Assembly: GCA_044892525.1 (NCBI GenBank)
Contig: CM097885.1
Span: forward strand, 20,896,001-20,960,000
Length of the DNA: 64,000 nucleotides
Direction of reading: 5' to 3'
From: Schmidtea polychroa
Lineage: Eukaryota
The position numbers were made by a program, and so were the translations under genes. Below are positions 2,438 through 64,000 of this stretch, piece by piece (position 1 is the first letter of the stretch; every line of letters starts with the position of its first letter). Under the pieces are notes generated by a model. The model was not told the origin of the DNA and did no database searches. It saw only the letters and a list, made by a program, of their open reading frames with translations.

Positions 2438-45044
<42,607 letters not shown>

Positions 45045-52452: not shown

Positions 52453-53180
52453 CAGCCCCGTACCGTGACACCTTTTGACGGGGGGGCAGACTTGCGTTTG
52501 GGGGGGGGGGGCAGTAATTCTCGTGTAAACTAAGTATTTTATGAAAACAGACTAGTCACTACTCACACTTTGCACTCCGAAATGTTCAATTTAAAAAAAA
52601 GGAAAGCAAAATCGACATTTTGTCTGAGCATTATTTTGCTACATTATTGCATATACTAGTATATAGTAAATGATTTTCGCACATTTTTTAGGAACAAACA
52701 CAAAAAACAAATAGCTGCATGTATTTGCACGACGGACAATTGGACATACAAAGACAGCACACACAGTCACACAGATTTGAAAACTAAAGGTGAGTGCAAT
52801 AGAAATTACACAGGAACTAGATCCAGAAAAAAGAAATTACGTGTGTGAGATATCGACATGACTCAAAATAGCTGCAGTCGACGATTTTTCATTTCATGAA
52901 ACCGCCGAAGAAACTCATCAGATTTGATGTTATTACTGATGTCACTTTCAAATGAGAGCAATACAAGGTTGGCTTTACGAGAATGGCTCATCGACGTACG
53001 AAAGGGAGTTAAGACACGAGATAAAGTACTGAAAGTCGCCTCACATGTTGCAGTTGAAGCACCGATTGTCAGTGTAGAAGCTGCAAGACGATAGACAGAT
53101 GGAAAAGCATCTCGGTATGAGTACAGTTCTTGCACTAACTGATGAACGTTTGTCACAGTACTGGCTCTCTTCAAATCGCT
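52453..53180 (-). mobile_element. 3' remnant of a hAT transposon (ZMYM1/Tip100-like) encoding the C-terminal dimerisation domain
   Basis: AFPSVYRLAASTLTIGASTATCEATFSTLSRVLTPFRTSMSHSR...LVLLSFE fits the hAT dimerisation pattern; GC-rich CAG-initiated end at 52453. Confidence 0.8.
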
Positions 53181-54229
53181 ATTAGAAATGAAAACGATTA
53201 TACAAAAAATAAATTGAATTAAAATAGTTTGAATTCGATTTAATGAATTAGTGTACACACAACAACTTGCACACACAAAATACACCAAACACCACTGAGA
53301 TACGTTTCCTATAATATAAGAAAAAATCAATAATCTTACATTATAGAAACATACATACCTTCTTTGATTTCACGCTGATGTTCTCATTAATAGTGCAATG
53401 AGATACATCTTACACTATAGAAATCTAAAAAGTGGTAGAAAAATTAAATACTGCACACAAATACAACACGTACTGAAAAACATATGCGAACTTTCGATAT
53501 ATAGAAATGCGCTGCTGAGATACGTTTCTATAATAACTTTATTTTAGACAATTTTTAGATAAAAAATGATCGCTGAAAATGTTTTTTAATGTATTTTTAA
53601 AGAAACTACGTTAAATTGTCATGAAAATGACGAAATATCATTTTAAGAATTATTTTTGAGTTAAAATTAAGTTTATAATTCATTAGAATTTTAGATATTG
53701 GTTTTAGAAATATTTTAGAAAAATACATTTTTGGCAATTGATTTAATTATTTAATAATAATTAAAAATATAAATGATTTATGTTATATCAAAATAATTCC
53801 AAAATAACTATAGAATTTTTTTTATTCTATTTATTCTATTTTCTAAAATTCTTAAAAATCCTGAAGATTAATTAAAAATAATTTATAATACAAATGTTGA
53901 CTAAAGGTAATATTTAAGAAATTGAATAATGATCTCATATCTATATGAATCAAAATCCAAGTCTTAAGATTTACTTAAAACTAAACATCTTAGCTGAAAG
54001 ACGCAGGCGCCACGGCGGAAAAATACAAAAGGCGGCAAAATTGTACAGAAATTTGTTATTTTCATAAGATTTTTATGTTTTTATAATAAATATGAATTAA
54101 ATTAAAAGTAATAAAGTTATATTGTTTTGTTATGTATGCATTTATCGTTTTTTTTACTCTTATTATGGAATGCGAAGGCGGTAATATGCAATTTTCACAC
54201 ATCATCTGAAACTCTAGCGCCGGTGCTGG

Positions 54230-57452: not shown

Positions 57453-58855
57453 TTAATAACATTTTTATATTTTTTTAATTAATATGAAATTTAAAAAAAC
57501 ATTTTAATATTAATTAAAATTAAATATTTGAAATTAAATCAAATCTTTACATTGTGATTTACACAAATAAATCTCAATAGATACTTGGAGGAAAACTCCG
57601 TAAACATTGCGAGATGTGTAAAAATACTCTAAAGATTTCTATAAATTATTTGTATTAAAAGAAGTATTTTGTAAAAACAATTCTTTTAAAGTAAAAATAA
57701 TTATCAAATAAAACTTTTAATTATTAGAAATCAAATTTTAAATTACAATAAAAAGTTTAATAAAATTTTATTAAATATATCGGTTTATTAAAATATAACT
57801 GAAATTAATTTAAAAAATAAGTTAAAATAAATACAGTAATTAACAATCGTATGTTGAATGTATGTATGAATATTTAAAAAGAAAAAAAAGAAAACCACCC
57901 AAGGGAATTGATCTACGAAGTACAAAGACAAGCTTTCATGCCAACAAAAGCACATTATTCCCGACGAATTGATAAAAGAATCAAACACCTATTGAGAAAA
58001 AGGAACTCAAACTAGGCCCTGGCACGAACAAGGAAACACTGAACGAAAGCGAAAACATTACAATGAACAAGGAAAGCAAAGAATTAGTAACCGACCTCAC
58101 AAATTCTTTATCCGATTGTGAAAAAGGATTACTTTCACTAGAACCAAAGTTCAGTATAAGCAGAGAAATAGATGACACAGCCATCCTCAATTTCAAGATA
58201 GTTCTTTGCTCATTGCGTACCAAATCAAATAGAACAATACGATACCTCAGGAAAATAACCAAGAAAAGCTCCCAGCATATACAAACGCAGACAAATTCTA
58301 TCATCAAAATCCTGATGCAGAATTAGATTCAACACTTTCAAAGGTTTGTCGCAAAATTTTTAAAATTAAAAAATATTTAAGCAAAAATAGTTAAATTGCG
58401 TTTATAAATAGTTATTGGAAATTATTTTATAAATATTTTAAGGTATTATTTATTAAAATAGGTTTCTAGGACCTAATTATAAAAGCTTTAAAAATTTAAA
58501 AATTTTACTTAGTGAGTTGTTTTGTATTTTAAAGGATATTTAAATAAAAAGAATTTTTTAATGTTAAATTCGTCAGAAAAAAAATATTATTATTTTTAAT
58601 CAATGATAAGTAAGAAAGGGAAATAAAAGAGAAGATCAAAGAGCGTTTTAGAAAATAGAAGAAGCTAAATCCCATGAAATTGAAAAGGGCTATCTTATAG
58701 TCGAAATTTTTTCATTTGTATTAAATATATTATTCGCAGCAAAAGGCTTAAATTATCATTTAATTGTTCTAAAATATTATTATTATTATTATTACTATTA
58801 CTATTATTACTATTACTATTATTACTATTACTATTATTACTATTACTATTGTTAC

Positions 58856-58934
<79 letters not shown>

Positions 58935-58966
58935 ATTATTATTAATATTATTATTATTATTATTAT

Positions 58967-59292
58967 TGTTTAATTCGATGTTCGGGTCTGTGTGCGCCTT
59001 TTACTATCCTTGTGTTGTTGGCTGTGGGCGCACACAGACGCATATAGTTGTGGGTGTTGTTTGGCTTTTTGTGTTCGCGTCTGTGTGCGCGGTCTGGTTA
59101 GACCGATTCTTGTGGGTGTGCGCACACAGATGCGAGAGAAATTAATGGTTGGTAAATTAAATTGATTTTGCTGGATTAATTGCTTTAAAAGGATTTTAGT
59201 GGAATTAAAAATGTTTTGGTGAAATTGTTTTACTGGGAGAAGTTTCGTTATTTGGTTCTAGAAGTTTTTTGTGATTATAATTGGAATTAACA
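58967..59292 (+). repeat. Putative 5' LTR (326 bp) of the BEL/Pao element
   Basis: Starts TGTTTAATTC right after the microsatellite and ends GAATTAACA (imperfect terminal inverted repeat, TG..CA). Followed by PBS-like tttgtttcgaaaccgga. The 3' LTR is not in the window. Confidence 0.7.
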
Positions 59293-59326
59293 ATTTGTTT
59301 CGAAACCGGACGTTGCCAATAATCAA

Positions 59327-59419
59327 ATGAATCCCGAATTGGAAGATGATACTTATACTGAACAATGCAGAAGCACAATTGGAGTTGACTTTAAAATCAG
59401 AACTATTGATTTAGATGGA
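59327..59419 (+). other. Captured Rab1 GTPase fragment (N-terminus plus switch I / beta2) at the polyprotein start
   Basis: [31 protein letters not shown] versus Rab1 MNPE...[25 protein letters not shown] (Rab1 sequence recalled from memory). Confidence 0.9.
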
Positions 59420-62400
59420 ATTATTGTTGTATATGCGAAAGGAAAAGTTCCCGATAAAATGATTGAGACGAGTTCAGCTACGAGATTGTTTAATATTACT
59501 GAAAGTACTGGAGGCGTTATGATTGGTATGATCCCTGATTGTCGATCTCAAGTATGTCGTGCACAAATGGAAGCAGCTCGATTTAGATATAAACATGGAT
59601 ATGAAATGCCTTGCGACAGGATATGGCGTTCTATGGCGGATATGGCTCAATTCCATTCCCAATCGGCACCAAGGCGGCCATTAGGATGTTCAATGATGGC
59701 GGTATCTTCGATTATAGACCTGGACAAATTGTTATCCAAAAATAAAATCATTGTTCGCGATATTGACTTTAAAAATGAACATGGTAGCAGAGCGTGGTTT
59801 CGGCTAGCCAGCCGGAACAAGGTAATTAATATGTATTATAAAATGTCTTTTTTGGTTTTATATATATTATGTAAATATTATGTTTATTATGTGTTTAATA
59901 ATATTTTTGTAATTAATAATATTTTGGTAATTAATATGTATTATAAAGAATCTTGTTTGTGGTCACGCATATTATGTATATATTATAATACTTTTGTAAA
60001 ATTAAACATCCTCCCTTCCCTACCGAGCGTGGGAAAGTGCTGCTATGGGCCCCAGCACTCTTTTAAAGGGGGAAGCCAGGGGAACAGGGTAAAGAACAGA
60101 GCTGAGTCAAGGGTGAGGGCGAGCGGGGTAATGGGTTTTGAGTTGCGATGGGAAAGTCAAATATTTGTCAAAACTCTTACTGGTAAGACAATTACTCTGG
60201 ACGTTAAATGGAAGGACACAATTGAAAAGATAAAAGGAAAAATCCAGGACAAAGAAGGAATTCCGGAAAATTATCAAATGTTAGTATACGCAGGAAAGCA
60301 GTTAGAAAATAAAAGAAGATTGAATGATTATAGGATACAAGTAAGGTCGACACTTCATTTGTCACTCAGGCTGTGCGGGGGCAATGACGAAGAGATTTTA
60401 GAAGAAGGACTGTGGAAAAAGAGAATGAAAAAAGGAAAATTAACGAGATTAAGAAACAAGATTCTCAATGATATAAATGGGAAGGATGTTAGCGAATGGT
60501 TGGCGGAATATGAAGATCAAAAGGAGAGTCTAGATGAAGAATTAGGGGATCTGAGAACAATCAGTAAAAAATTGCAAAGATTGGACATCACTGCAATCTT
60601 AGATAAAGACCTGCAAGAGATCGAGGAAAAACATCAAATAATTGGGGCATTGATGGAAAGAAAAGCAAATCAATCTTTTATGGAAGAGAAGGAAAATGTG
60701 AATGATGATACCATCAAGAAGAATAATTCCGGGCATAAAAGAAAACTGGAAAGTCTACAGAAAATTACAATCCCTGTTTTTGAAGGCAAGATGAAAGAGT
60801 ACGAACCATGGAAAGCAGCTTTTACTGCATGTGTTGACGAAGCGGAAGGTGATGAGGTTGAAAAGATGTTTCACCTGCACAAGTACCTTCACGGAGAGCC
60901 ATTAAAGTTAATTGAAAATCTTGGATATTCGGCAGAGGCTTATCAAATGGCAAAAGAGAAGTTGGATAGGCGATATGGTGGGGATGAAAGGATATATTTA
61001 TCAATGTTAGAGGAGATGGAACAGTTCAGGCCAATTCGAGAAGGAGATTTGAAGGATCTAGACTCATTTGTTGGATTATTAGAAACGGTCACCGTGCGAT
61101 TTAAATCCACTGGGAAAGAATCCGAGTTAAAGACTGGCTATCTTTTTCAAAAGTGTTTGGGCAAGTTAACGACGAATCTTGTGTATAAATGGAAAAAAGA
61201 CAAAATAGAAAAGGAATTGCGGGAGACGATAGAGGATTTGAGAAGATGGATACAACAAGAAGCGGAGATCCTAAGGTCCACTAACGAGGTTGTGTATGGG
61301 ACTAAACCAAGCACCAGGGCTTATGATGGGTCAAGAGTAGAAGGGGTGTCTAGGGGAAGAGAAAGATTCAATCCTGGAGGTCGGACGCATTTTACGGGGC
61401 AACCAGATGGCAGAGTTAAAAGTGGAACAGTTATACAGGTGAATAACTCTAACGGCTATAGATCAGAGTGTGTACACTGTGGTGGTCAACATTACCTAGA
61501 CCAATGTGACAAGTTCAAGCAACTCACAATTCCTAAAAGGAAGAAAGTCATCGAAGAAAAGAAACTGTGCAGGAATTGCTTTAAAAGAAATCACATGGCC
61601 AAGGAATGTCGTAAAGAATCTTTCTGCAAGGTTACCGGATGTAAGCAAAGGCACAACGAATTATTACATGAAAGACAAATTAGTGAGGAGAGCGAAAAAG
61701 GTAACAACACGATGCTGACCCAGAAAGGGATGAACGAGAAAAACCTAAGACCTTACCTTAGTTTAAGAACAATTCCAATCTACCTGGAAAATGGGAACAA
61801 GAAAATAAAAGTCAATGCACTGTTAGATGATGCAAGCTCAGTAAGCTACATCAATCTAAGAATTTTAAAGGAGCTTGGGTTAAAAGGGGTGGAAAAGAGG
61901 ACACCGATAGGGGTTATCGGAGGTAATGTCCAACAAATGATGGCTACTCCAGTGACCATGAAGTTAATTAGTAATGACGGCCGATTGACGAAAAACTTCA
62001 ACGCACTGGCCGTAACAAATATCACGGGAGAAATGAAGGTAGTAAATTGGGCCAGAGAAAAACATAAGTGGACTCACCTGAAGGGCATCCATTTTCCGAT
62101 GCTAGACGAGAGACAGGCAGTTGAAGTGTTAATTGGCGCGGATTATTTAACGCTTCAACGAGCACTCAAAGAAATCGATGGTAAGTTGGATGAACCGATT
62201 GCCCGTTTAACGCCACTTGGCTGGACATGTGTGGGAAGAACCTCGGTGGGAAGAACTTGGAACCATCAAAGCAATTTCATACGAACGTTCTTCGGTAATG
62301 GCGAGGATTTGCAACGACAGATGGAGCGATTTTGGGAAATTGATGATAGCGGCTTAAAGGAAAATATATTTGCAGCGAAAGACCAAGCGATTTATGAGAA

Positions 62401-64000
62401 AACCAAATCTGAGATGAAGAAAGTAGACGGACATTTCGAGGTAAAAGTGCCATGGAAAGAGTCACCAACAGCTTTGCCCAATAGTGAAAAAATGGCAGAA
62501 AGTCGACTGCGAAGTTTGGACAAGAGGCTTGAAAAGGAAGACTTACGAACTGAGTATCAGGATATTTTGAATGGTTACCTGAAAAAAGATTATATAAGTA
62601 TTGTAAAAGAGAAAATGATGCCTGGAGATTCGGAATGGATATTACCACACTTTCCCGTGGTTAGAAGAGATAAGGACACCACGAAAGTGCGTATTGTGTT
62701 TGATGCGGCAGCCAGGTGTAATGGGGTGGGACTTAATGATATGGTGGAAGTTGGCCCAAAATTACAAAATGAAGTTTTTGATATTTTAATTCGTTTTCGT
62801 CGATTTTCCGTAGCTGTTGTTTGTGATATAGCAGAAATGTATCTGCAAATAAGAATGGCTCTTGAAGACAGGAAATATCATCGGTTTTTATGGTCAACTG
62901 GGGGGAAAATTATTAAGTATGAGTTTAATCGGTTAGTGTTTGGTCTTAATGCATCTCCATTCCTTGCCCAGCTAGTCGCGCAAGAGAATGCAAAGAAATT
63001 TGAAAAGGACTACCCAAAAGTGACAGAATCTATTTGCAAGTCTACGTATATGGACGACACCATGGACTCTGTTGATTCTGAAGAAGAAGGAATGAGGCTG
63101 AAAGAGGGGCTAGAAACAGTTTGGGGCAATGCCGGAATGCGGCCTAGAAAATGGCTATCCAACTCGGAAAGAATTATGGCGACAATCCCAATTGAAGAAC
63201 GAGCTAAAACACTGAATATTGAAAAGGAAACGACAATGGCCGTCAAGACCCTAGGTTTGAAATGGTACTCGGAAGACGATGAATTTAGTTTTCAAGTAGA
63301 TCTGCCGAATGAGGAATGTTTATCGAAAAGAAAGGTATTGAGCATAGTGGCAAGAATCTTTGATCCATTGGGACTGTTAGGCCCATTCATAATCATAGGG
63401 AAAAAGATTATTCAGAAGTTGTGGTTGTCAGGGCTTGATTGGGACGAAAAGCTACCTCCAAAGTTGAATAAAGAAATACACAAGTGGGTAGAGGACACAA
63501 ATAATCTCGGAGATCTGCGAATTGCGAGATGTTTAAGGACTCAAATGAAAAATGAATGGCAATTACATGTCTTCTCCGATGCGTCAAGCACCGCATATGG
63601 GTCAGCTATATATCTACGGGAAGAAACTATGGTGGGACCTAAAAGTGTGTTAATTGCGTCAAGGGCAAAGGTAGCTCCAGTGCAAATTATAAGTATACCA
63701 AGGTTGGAATTAATGGCCGCGTGTACTGGAGTTAAATTAGCAATACGGGTTTCAGAAGTGCTCGGGAAACCGATGAGTGAGATATGGTTCTGGTCCGATA
63801 GTAAAGACGTAATACATTGGGTTCGAAATTATTCGAGACTATTCAAGCCATTCGCAGCTAATCGAATTGGGTTCATTCAAGAAATGACCAAACCTGGGCA
63901 ACGGCATTATGTTCCAACAAGTGAAAATCCATCGGATTTGATCACAAGAGGATTATCGGCATCGGATTTGATAAACAGCACCATGTGGTGGGAGGGACCG
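59327..64000 (+). CDS. BEL/Pao polyprotein, at least 1558 aa and open at the window end: Rab1 fragment, proteasome alpha-6 fragment, hydrophobic linker, ubiquitin, Gag, protease, RT, RNase H
   Basis: ATG at 59327 after an in-frame TAA at 59288. No stop seen in hand translation, and the track lists no stop-terminated ORF in this frame. Motifs: [11 protein letters not shown]...W..F (Gag, ~60755); [13 protein letters not shown] / [14 protein letters not shown] / [15 protein letters not shown] (~61470-61670); [12 protein letters not shown] (protease, ~61817); [27 protein letters not shown] (63047-63058); [21 protein letters not shown] (RNase H). Confidence 0.93.
59420..59707 (+). other. Captured proteasome subunit alpha type-6 (PSMA6/alpha1-like) internal fragment
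   Basis: [84 protein letters not shown] aligns without gaps to PSMA6 [84 protein letters not shown] (recalled from memory). Confidence 0.92.
60155..60382 (+). other. Complete 76-aa ubiquitin-derived domain immediately upstream of Gag
   Basis: [76 protein letters not shown]; 53/76 identical to canonical ubiquitin by my hand count, no gaps, terminal GG kept. Confidence 0.96.

Follow-up and report, generated by a model that had tools for sequence, protein, structure and literature searches.

We show here that a proteasome-like reading frame in a 64,000-nucleotide stretch of the Schmidtea polychroa genome (contig CM097885.1, positions 20,896,001 to 20,960,000; hereafter the window) is a piece of spliced host mRNA for proteasome alpha type-6 (PSMA6), carried in both long terminal repeats (LTRs) of a BEL/Pao retrotransposon. 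Such pieces belong to swappable, in-frame patchworks of host sequence, which are likely translated as a disposable leader ahead of Gag and probably cut off after the Gly-Gly of a captured ubiquitin.

A sequence-only reading had described an ungapped fragment of the middle of PSMA6 at 59420-59707, and its identity was borne out. The plus-strand translation is free of stops, lies within a frame that stays open from 59291 up to the end of the window, matches PF00227 (Proteasome) in Pfam over residues 41-138 of the open reading frame (E 8e-17) and finds its best solved relatives in PSMA6 chains, over residues 48-141 (E 4.7e-27), a value on which we rejected a chance match; the closest PSMA6 homologs among the matches listed are flatworm proteins. 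The exact ends had to be moved. Host residues 53-153 are encoded at 59439..59741 (+, about 85% nucleotide identity), homology to PSMA6 continuing some 11 codons past 59707, and the IIVVY at the start of 59420 belongs to the 'GIIVVYDV' of Rab1. The gate segment and much of the C-terminal part are missing, as had been stated: with residues 53-153 of 246 only, both the N-terminal gate segment and the complete beta-sandwich fold of a 20S alpha subunit are absent.

The host PSMA6 gene was located elsewhere in the genome (L084), with introns of 50, 43 and 42 nt. The 43-nt intron of the host gene (intron 2) has no counterpart in the fragment, in agreement with the earlier observation of an intronless fragment. 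Among 72 distinct matching segments, intron 1 is absent from 11 of the 11 that span it and intron 2 from 50 of 50. Because the host intron is precisely missing, the fragment derives from spliced host mRNA, and the proposal of capture from mRNA, which was to be checked against the host introns, is upheld. We rejected a host exon, since the host gene lies elsewhere and has introns, and an assembly artefact, given the paired LTRs, target duplications and many copies. A decayed second copy of the PSMA6 C-terminal part, with stops, was also seen (L085, G000:C3:79.62 Mb).

The element around the fragment is BEL/Pao by anatomy (LTR, primer-binding site, polypurine tract and domain order). It is inserted in an (ATT)n microsatellite (58770..58966, strand not assigned) with ATTAT on either side, and its 815-bp 5' LTR (TG...CA) spans 58967..59781 (+). 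The 3' LTR lies 6687 bp downstream, beyond the window, after a polypurine tract, and is identical at 814 of 815 nt (one mismatch). The primer-binding site (PBS, 59782..59802, +) comprises 21 contiguous nucleotides complementary to the 3' end of host tRNA-Met including CCA, which we take to be the initiator type (tRNA-iMet) from its hallmarks. The 3'-end pattern of this predicted primer tRNA has 1227 matches genome-wide, and at G000:C1:79.32-79.39 Mb (L227-L230) tRNA-Met genes are repeated in tandem every 454 bp. Sister copies are flanked by 5-bp target-site duplications (CTAAG, CGTAG and ATATG); that of the window copy is ambiguous because its site is (ATT)n. The sequence-only reading was right that the fragment is carried by a retrotransposon; the fragment is not a domain of the internal coding region, but lies inside the LTR, upstream of the PBS, once in each of the two.

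Two further landmarks of the LTR may bear on its expression. Its head, which is recognisable in many LTR variants, contains two tandem GC-rich hairpins (58985..59136, +; z -4.42, with none of 200 shuffles equally stable), and an AATAAA at 59741..59746 (+), likely a poly(A) signal, lies 35-41 nt upstream of the LTR end. An AATAAA occurs within 70 nt of the LTR end at 95 of 110 loci and is absent from the other 15; at 87 of those 95 it reads Asn-Lys in the frame of Gag.

Downstream, the region 60383..64000 (+) encodes a BEL/Pao Gag (DUF1759, with the three Cys/His knuckles that are a hallmark of BEL/Pao), aspartic protease, reverse transcriptase and Peptidase_A17. DUF1759, RVT_1 and Peptidase_A17 were matched by Pfam in the frame of the fragment, so ordered that the element reads Gag-PR-RT-RNaseH/Peptidase_A17-IN; protease and Integrase_H2C2 matches fell below their cut-offs and DUF5641 above. 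The pol of the window copy is split across two frames just past the window end, where the integrase-region domains lie in a different frame, and one unbroken frame from inside the LTR through Gag-Pol to the 3' LTR was present in 3 of 11 fetched elements. The window copy is young, and the two LTRs of one element are at least 99% identical wherever the second was found. Elsewhere, two tandem elements have one LTR in common, with Rab1-CCT cargo (L114/L115, L214; 905 nt, 100% identical).

Immediately upstream of the PSMA6 part, a Rab1A/B match (E about 1e-6) marks a second captured host mRNA. The host Rab1 gene was located (L222), and nine other candidate regions were rejected as other GTPases. 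The window copy holds a remnant of the Rab1 5' UTR at 59267..59326 (+; 78% identity to the host locus and 98.6% in the sister LTR L174), followed at 59327..59438 (+) by the host Rab1 start codon and spliced coding remnants, from which 69, 87 and 63 nt have been lost in net deletions. In LTR copies, Rab1 sequence comprises about 60 nt of 5' UTR, the start codon and coding sequence spliced across four introns; in one abundant type of LTR, Rab1 up to about residue 110, counted from residue 1, is joined to PSMA6. Measured against such a parent-type LTR (L185), the window leader has net deletions of 69 (28+41), 87, 63, 3 and 27 nt, five of five being multiples of 3. The Rab1/PSMA6 junction, a single case judged by eye, falls in an A-run that is shared.

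Our data demonstrate that the LTRs of this element are exchangeable mosaics in which cargo is swapped, trimmed and fused. In the AT-rich 781-Mb genome searched, the 20-mer at the LTR-PBS junction occurs 351 times (control, 0). The first 100 of the 351 listed occurrences gave an unbiased set of 80 PBS-selected loci (12 were already in an earlier set and 8 were skipped), which together with 30 earlier loci make the full set of 110. Copies about 99% identical in their internal regions carry unrelated LTR middles. Scanning segments in the Gag frame, we found 20 of 41 above a Pfam cut-off, from nine donor families: Proteasome, EAP30/Vps36 (the host Snf8-type gene, L196), DSPc, Adaptin_N, Cpn60_TCP1, Ras, LIM, zf-RING_2 and HSP70. 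A tenth, SelR, is fused in frame behind Rab1-PSMA6 at one locus (L194), at which we saw no PBS. The other frames yielded 167 segments, of which 150 were scanned and 4 exceeded a Pfam cut-off. Three of these 4 are donors already named, in copies with a frameshift, and the fourth is a 7-residue antisense Xin-repeat match on a tandem repeat. PSMA6 itself ranges across lineages from residues 12-187 (94-98% identity) through about 52-153 (85%, the window lineage) to 49-72. Cargo is not required, since short cargo-free LTR variants exist (L088, L099 and L149). Four other variants (L019, L020, L109 and L142) have long open cargo reading frames with no Pfam match above cut-off, and in-frame tandem duplications within the cargo were seen at five loci (L015, L086, L145, L095 and L143), including a 26-residue unit present at least three times and a PSMA6 helix segment present three times.

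Throughout this exchange the frame into Gag is kept while the amino-acid sequence drifts. The open frame of the fragment continues into ubiquitin-Gag-Pol, and we defined the Gag frame as the one in which the CA that ends the LTR and the TGG after it read His-Gly. At 54 of the 80 PBS-selected loci this frame runs without a stop through 100 or more codons ahead of the PBS, a length that the other sense frames reach at 1 and 0 loci (76 against 2 and 0 at all 110). At 44 of 80 it has no stop within the final 150 codons of the LTR, as against 1, 0, 0, 0 and 0 in the other frames; the copies are related, so these counts are not independent. Five indels in PSMA6 are shared between copies. Two deletions of 3 nt and, in 18 segments, a –1/+1 pair make up the four that preserve the frame; the fifth, a 14-nt deletion, breaks it. 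Between the PBS and ubiquitin, the linker comes in more than ten lengths and is open in the Gag frame at 62 of the 85 loci with ubiquitin found and broken at 23; ubiquitin was not found in 25 of the 110 loci. In the window copy it is a stop-free, AT-rich, hydrophobic stretch of 125 codons (59783..60157, +).

The captured ubiquitin unit that follows (60158..60382, +; Pfam, residues 291-361 of the open reading frame) ends in LRLCGG directly before Gag. A second family, with a Gag about 37% identical, has the same junction and layout, its own linkers and two ubiquitin units, and cargo types are common to both families. Its Gag-proximal ubiquitin ends in LAGG where the first family has LCGG, and Gly-Gly is retained in this proximal unit while the distal one has lost it in some copies. 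The canonical ubiquitin tail is RLRGG, and recognition of LCGG or LAGG by deubiquitinases is uncertain. In pestiviruses, ubiquitin insertions act as a cleavage signal for host proteases. The corresponding feature, a conserved Gly-Gly directly preceding the protein to be released, is present here, and cleavage at it is putative. A search for relatives of ubiquitin-Gag in other organisms was swamped by polyubiquitins in the best 120 of 662 matches and says nothing on distribution.

Selection distinguishes the parts of this long frame. Codon changes were counted against a natural reference (the host gene or the window copy) with Nei-Gojobori sites, a change in at least two copies being called shared and any other private. 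Among shared changes in PSMA6 we counted 42.5 synonymous, 124.5 non-synonymous and 0 stops (dN/dS 0.86), and among private ones 51.8, 168.2 and 9 (dN/dS 0.96); the stop counts differ (p 0.012). The copies are related and protein-based searches favour open frames; in the unbiased subset, where dN/dS is 0.88, stops are 0 shared against 2 private and the difference is not significant. Shared dN/dS is 1.17 in Snf8 cargo and 0.91 in the linker (2 shared and 7 private stops), as against 0.40 in ubiquitin (private 1.06), 0.32-0.33 in Gag and 0.55 in pol, the last from few changes, and the PSMA6 value differs from those of ubiquitin (p 0.011) and Gag (p 0.002). Family-wide purifying selection on the PSMA6 protein is thus absent. 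Because cargo evolves neutrally while ubiquitin and Gag are under purifying selection, and because only 28 of the 80 PBS-selected loci carry PSMA6, selection keeps the frame and not proteasome function. The earlier suggestion that the fragment is a tolerated passenger is essentially right: its substitutions are near neutral, its span shrinks and copies do without it.

A mechanism that we consider probable can be proposed. Transcription would start near the hairpin-bearing LTR head and polyadenylation would follow the AATAAA near the LTR end, which would place the cargo at the RNA's 5' end, within an extended R region; in the window copy, the Rab1 AUG would start the polyprotein. While copying this 5' end, reverse transcriptase may switch templates to co-packaged abundant mRNAs, and the captured pieces, sometimes with start codons, would then be present in both new LTRs. 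Out-of-frame captures would act as blocking upstream open reading frames before Gag and be lost. In-frame captures would be tolerated, because scanning ribosomes could still reach Gag and host deubiquitinases would remove the leader, freeing Gag with a fixed N-terminus. We infer the transcription start, translation and cleavage from sequence. Several observations run against this model: the stretch of LTR from the end of the hairpins to the Rab1 AUG region contains three AUGs that are out of frame (59130, 59145 and 59211), two stops are shared in the linker and the 14-nt PSMA6 deletion is shared. In addition, Gag could start downstream of the LTR, because in-frame AUGs exist in the linker (59831-60131). 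Four contig sets that we guessed to be RNA, and that resolve neither start, strand nor splicing, were not used as evidence; one of their contigs links a variant of the cargo with the region around the LTR end.

The model also leaves the predominance of long cargo unexplained, and the leading candidate for this, which we regard as doubtful, is that cargo is kept for its nucleotide sequence, hiding the 5' end from piRNA silencing or borrowing host translation signals, with the frame as a side constraint. Such a role is compatible with an in-frame leader. It would fit the choice of donors, all those identified being general housekeeping genes, the inclusion of the Rab1 5' UTR and start codon, and the turnover of cargo next to an internal region that stays about 99% identical. 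Planarian LTR elements are described as piRNA targets in the available parts of one study (PMC8532177), and gene capture against host silencing is reported, as far as the accessible text goes, for Drosophila telomeric elements (PMC13534243). However, drift to 85% host identity and trimming would erode any mimicry, no piRNA-pathway gene is among the donors identified by Pfam, and genic piRNAs are described, in those same parts of the planarian study, as mostly sense and unlikely to be regulatory (PMC8532177).

It is unlikely that the leader serves instead as a misfolded degradation signal limiting element activity, uncut leader-ubiquitin-Gag going to the proteasome, or that the hydrophobic linker anchors the precursor in a membrane. 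The captured pieces are domains cut short, every subfamily read has a hydrophobic linker despite differing sequence and length, and the Lys48 region of ubiquitin is intact, all of which would suit one version or the other. Against them, the linker evolves near neutrality and T-rich DNA alone yields hydrophobic codons, and the conservation of Gly-Gly favours cleavage over an uncleavable fusion.

The sequence-only reading had proposed that the fragment might be a proteasome-binding module, docking the polyprotein on the 20S particle or disturbing its assembly, and our results make this very unlikely. PSMA6 is the commonest recognised cargo and PSMA6-like sequence has 1469 candidate places in the genome; the fragment retains the RPLG motif and both helices, and amino-acid changes found in at least two copies number 16 over 28 invariant columns and 48 over 58 variable ones. 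The sole result pointing to some constraint on the peptide, a borderline one, is the comparison of the window lineage with host PSMA6, where dN/dS is about 0.42 (12.5 synonymous and 20.5 non-synonymous changes; p 0.02-0.04 with no transition/transversion correction). Contrary to this stand the near-neutral values across the family, the range of boundaries, and young, intact-frame copies with internal regions about 99% identical that are entirely without PSMA6. The fragment is also structurally incomplete: with secondary structure placed on an AlphaFold model of flatworm PSMA6 (one of five models was confident), it covers three whole strands and a decayed fourth of nine core strands, about one third, and two of five helices of the predicted subunit, and the Tyr-Thr-Gln-Ser-Ala-Glu-Met preceding RPLG is changed at 4 of 7 positions. 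Neutral substitution, including at interface residues, had been named in advance as what would speak against docking, and it is largely what we see: the window copy is changed at 3 of 28 invariant columns and 14 of 58 variable ones (p 0.25), the window-lineage dN/dS being the contrary result.

Finally, it is extremely unlikely that the cargo escapes translation, whether by falling within U3 or in some other way, with Gag made from a downstream AUG or a spliced RNA and the frame agreement an accident of descent: the linker AUGs, a conserved AAG/GT after the PBS (a possible splice donor at 59822, +, at which the four guessed-RNA contig sets, again not used as evidence, gave no GT-AG joint) and the relatedness of the copies, whose counts are not independent, speak for it. 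Against it, a single frame is kept through nine donors unrelated to one another, through the five net deletions and through linkers of more than ten lengths, and the AATAAA is held in one phase.

By analogy, the leader model makes the system work like LTR-mediated retroposition combined with a pestivirus-style ubiquitin spacer, in an element that is BEL/Pao by anatomy. LTR-mediated retroposition, including maize Bs1, is described in the accessible parts of one study as template switching that yields partial spliced mRNA captures and multi-gene chimeras copied onward with the element, Pao/BEL elements being among the carriers (PMC5131818). Intron loss and partial multi-gene mRNA chimeras are likewise present here. 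In the described cases, however, the retrocopy replaces part of the internal open reading frame and leaves the element non-autonomous (PMC5131818), a feature absent here: the cargo lies in both LTRs, is in frame and is exchanged across hundreds of copies, and Gag-Pol can be intact. Cytopathogenic pestiviruses are alike in having captured host ubiquitin, single or double, before a polyprotein part and mosaic inserts of host mRNA, yet these are sporadic insertions in an RNA virus, going by the portions available (PMC13517609), whereas here ubiquitin is fixed and under purifying selection, with variable cargo upstream of it in the LTR. The planarian BEL/Pao 'Flow' families share the domain set and order, LTR, PBS, polypurine tract, 5-bp duplication and length of about 7.5 kb; the main text of that paper contains no 'ubiquitin', and the parts of it consulted mention no coding LTRs (PMC3118150). 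The giant planarian Burro/GYPSM1 elements are also LTR elements with host-like domains, including a ubiquitin-like one, in the polyprotein, but in the text available they are gypsy-type, over 30 kb long, and carry the extra domains in the internal open reading frame and not as exchangeable LTR cargo (PMC6431247). Drosophila telomeric retrotransposons show repeated capture of host gene fragments by an active retroelement; they are non-LTR elements whose captures are reported, in the sections at hand, to suppress host silencing (PMC13534243), whereas the donors here are housekeeping genes. Full-text literature searches and the parts consulted of PMC3118150, PMC6431247 and PMC8532177 yielded no account of LTRs that are coding and exchangeable and run into ubiquitin-Gag.

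The window and its surroundings hold other features of note. Penelope-like remains at 39226-42285 pair a minus-strand GIY-YIG open reading frame (below cut-off) with a plus-strand 636-aa reverse transcriptase one, and a C-terminal fragment of a hAT transposase lies at 52863-53369 on the minus strand. On one strand, an open reading frame with a Frizzled-type domain (23394-24134, below cut-off) and a tyrosine-kinase one (43854-45044) are possibly exons of one receptor tyrosine kinase gene. In the genome downstream of the window, a cluster of open reading frames including a P-loop ATPase-like one and a long one of 1050 aa (L032-L033) is, by eye, presumably a Polinton-like element.

LTRs are usually regarded as control regions that encode no protein, and a captured gene normally takes the place of an element's interior and disables the element. 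In the present case the polyprotein of elements whose Gag-Pol is intact appears to begin inside the LTR, in swappable host-derived sequence. Such elements offer a natural system in which one can measure how mRNA is captured, how selection acts on an open frame but not on the protein it encodes, and how ubiquitin serves as a processing insulator. There is also a practical consequence: LTR copies account for at least 150 of the genome's PSMA6-like fragments and for many of its Rab1-like ones, and for these housekeeping genes they can lead to inflated gene counts, misleading RNA-seq mapping and poor choices in RNAi design. We raise as a tentative idea, possible and short of probable, that the LTR is an evolved, self-renewing cassette that samples host mRNAs into the 5' end of the element for disguise or retuning, while ubiquitin insulates Gag. 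If this is true, the genome would harbor a standing exon-shuffling machine, with thousands of fused host-gene fragments behind LTR promoters.
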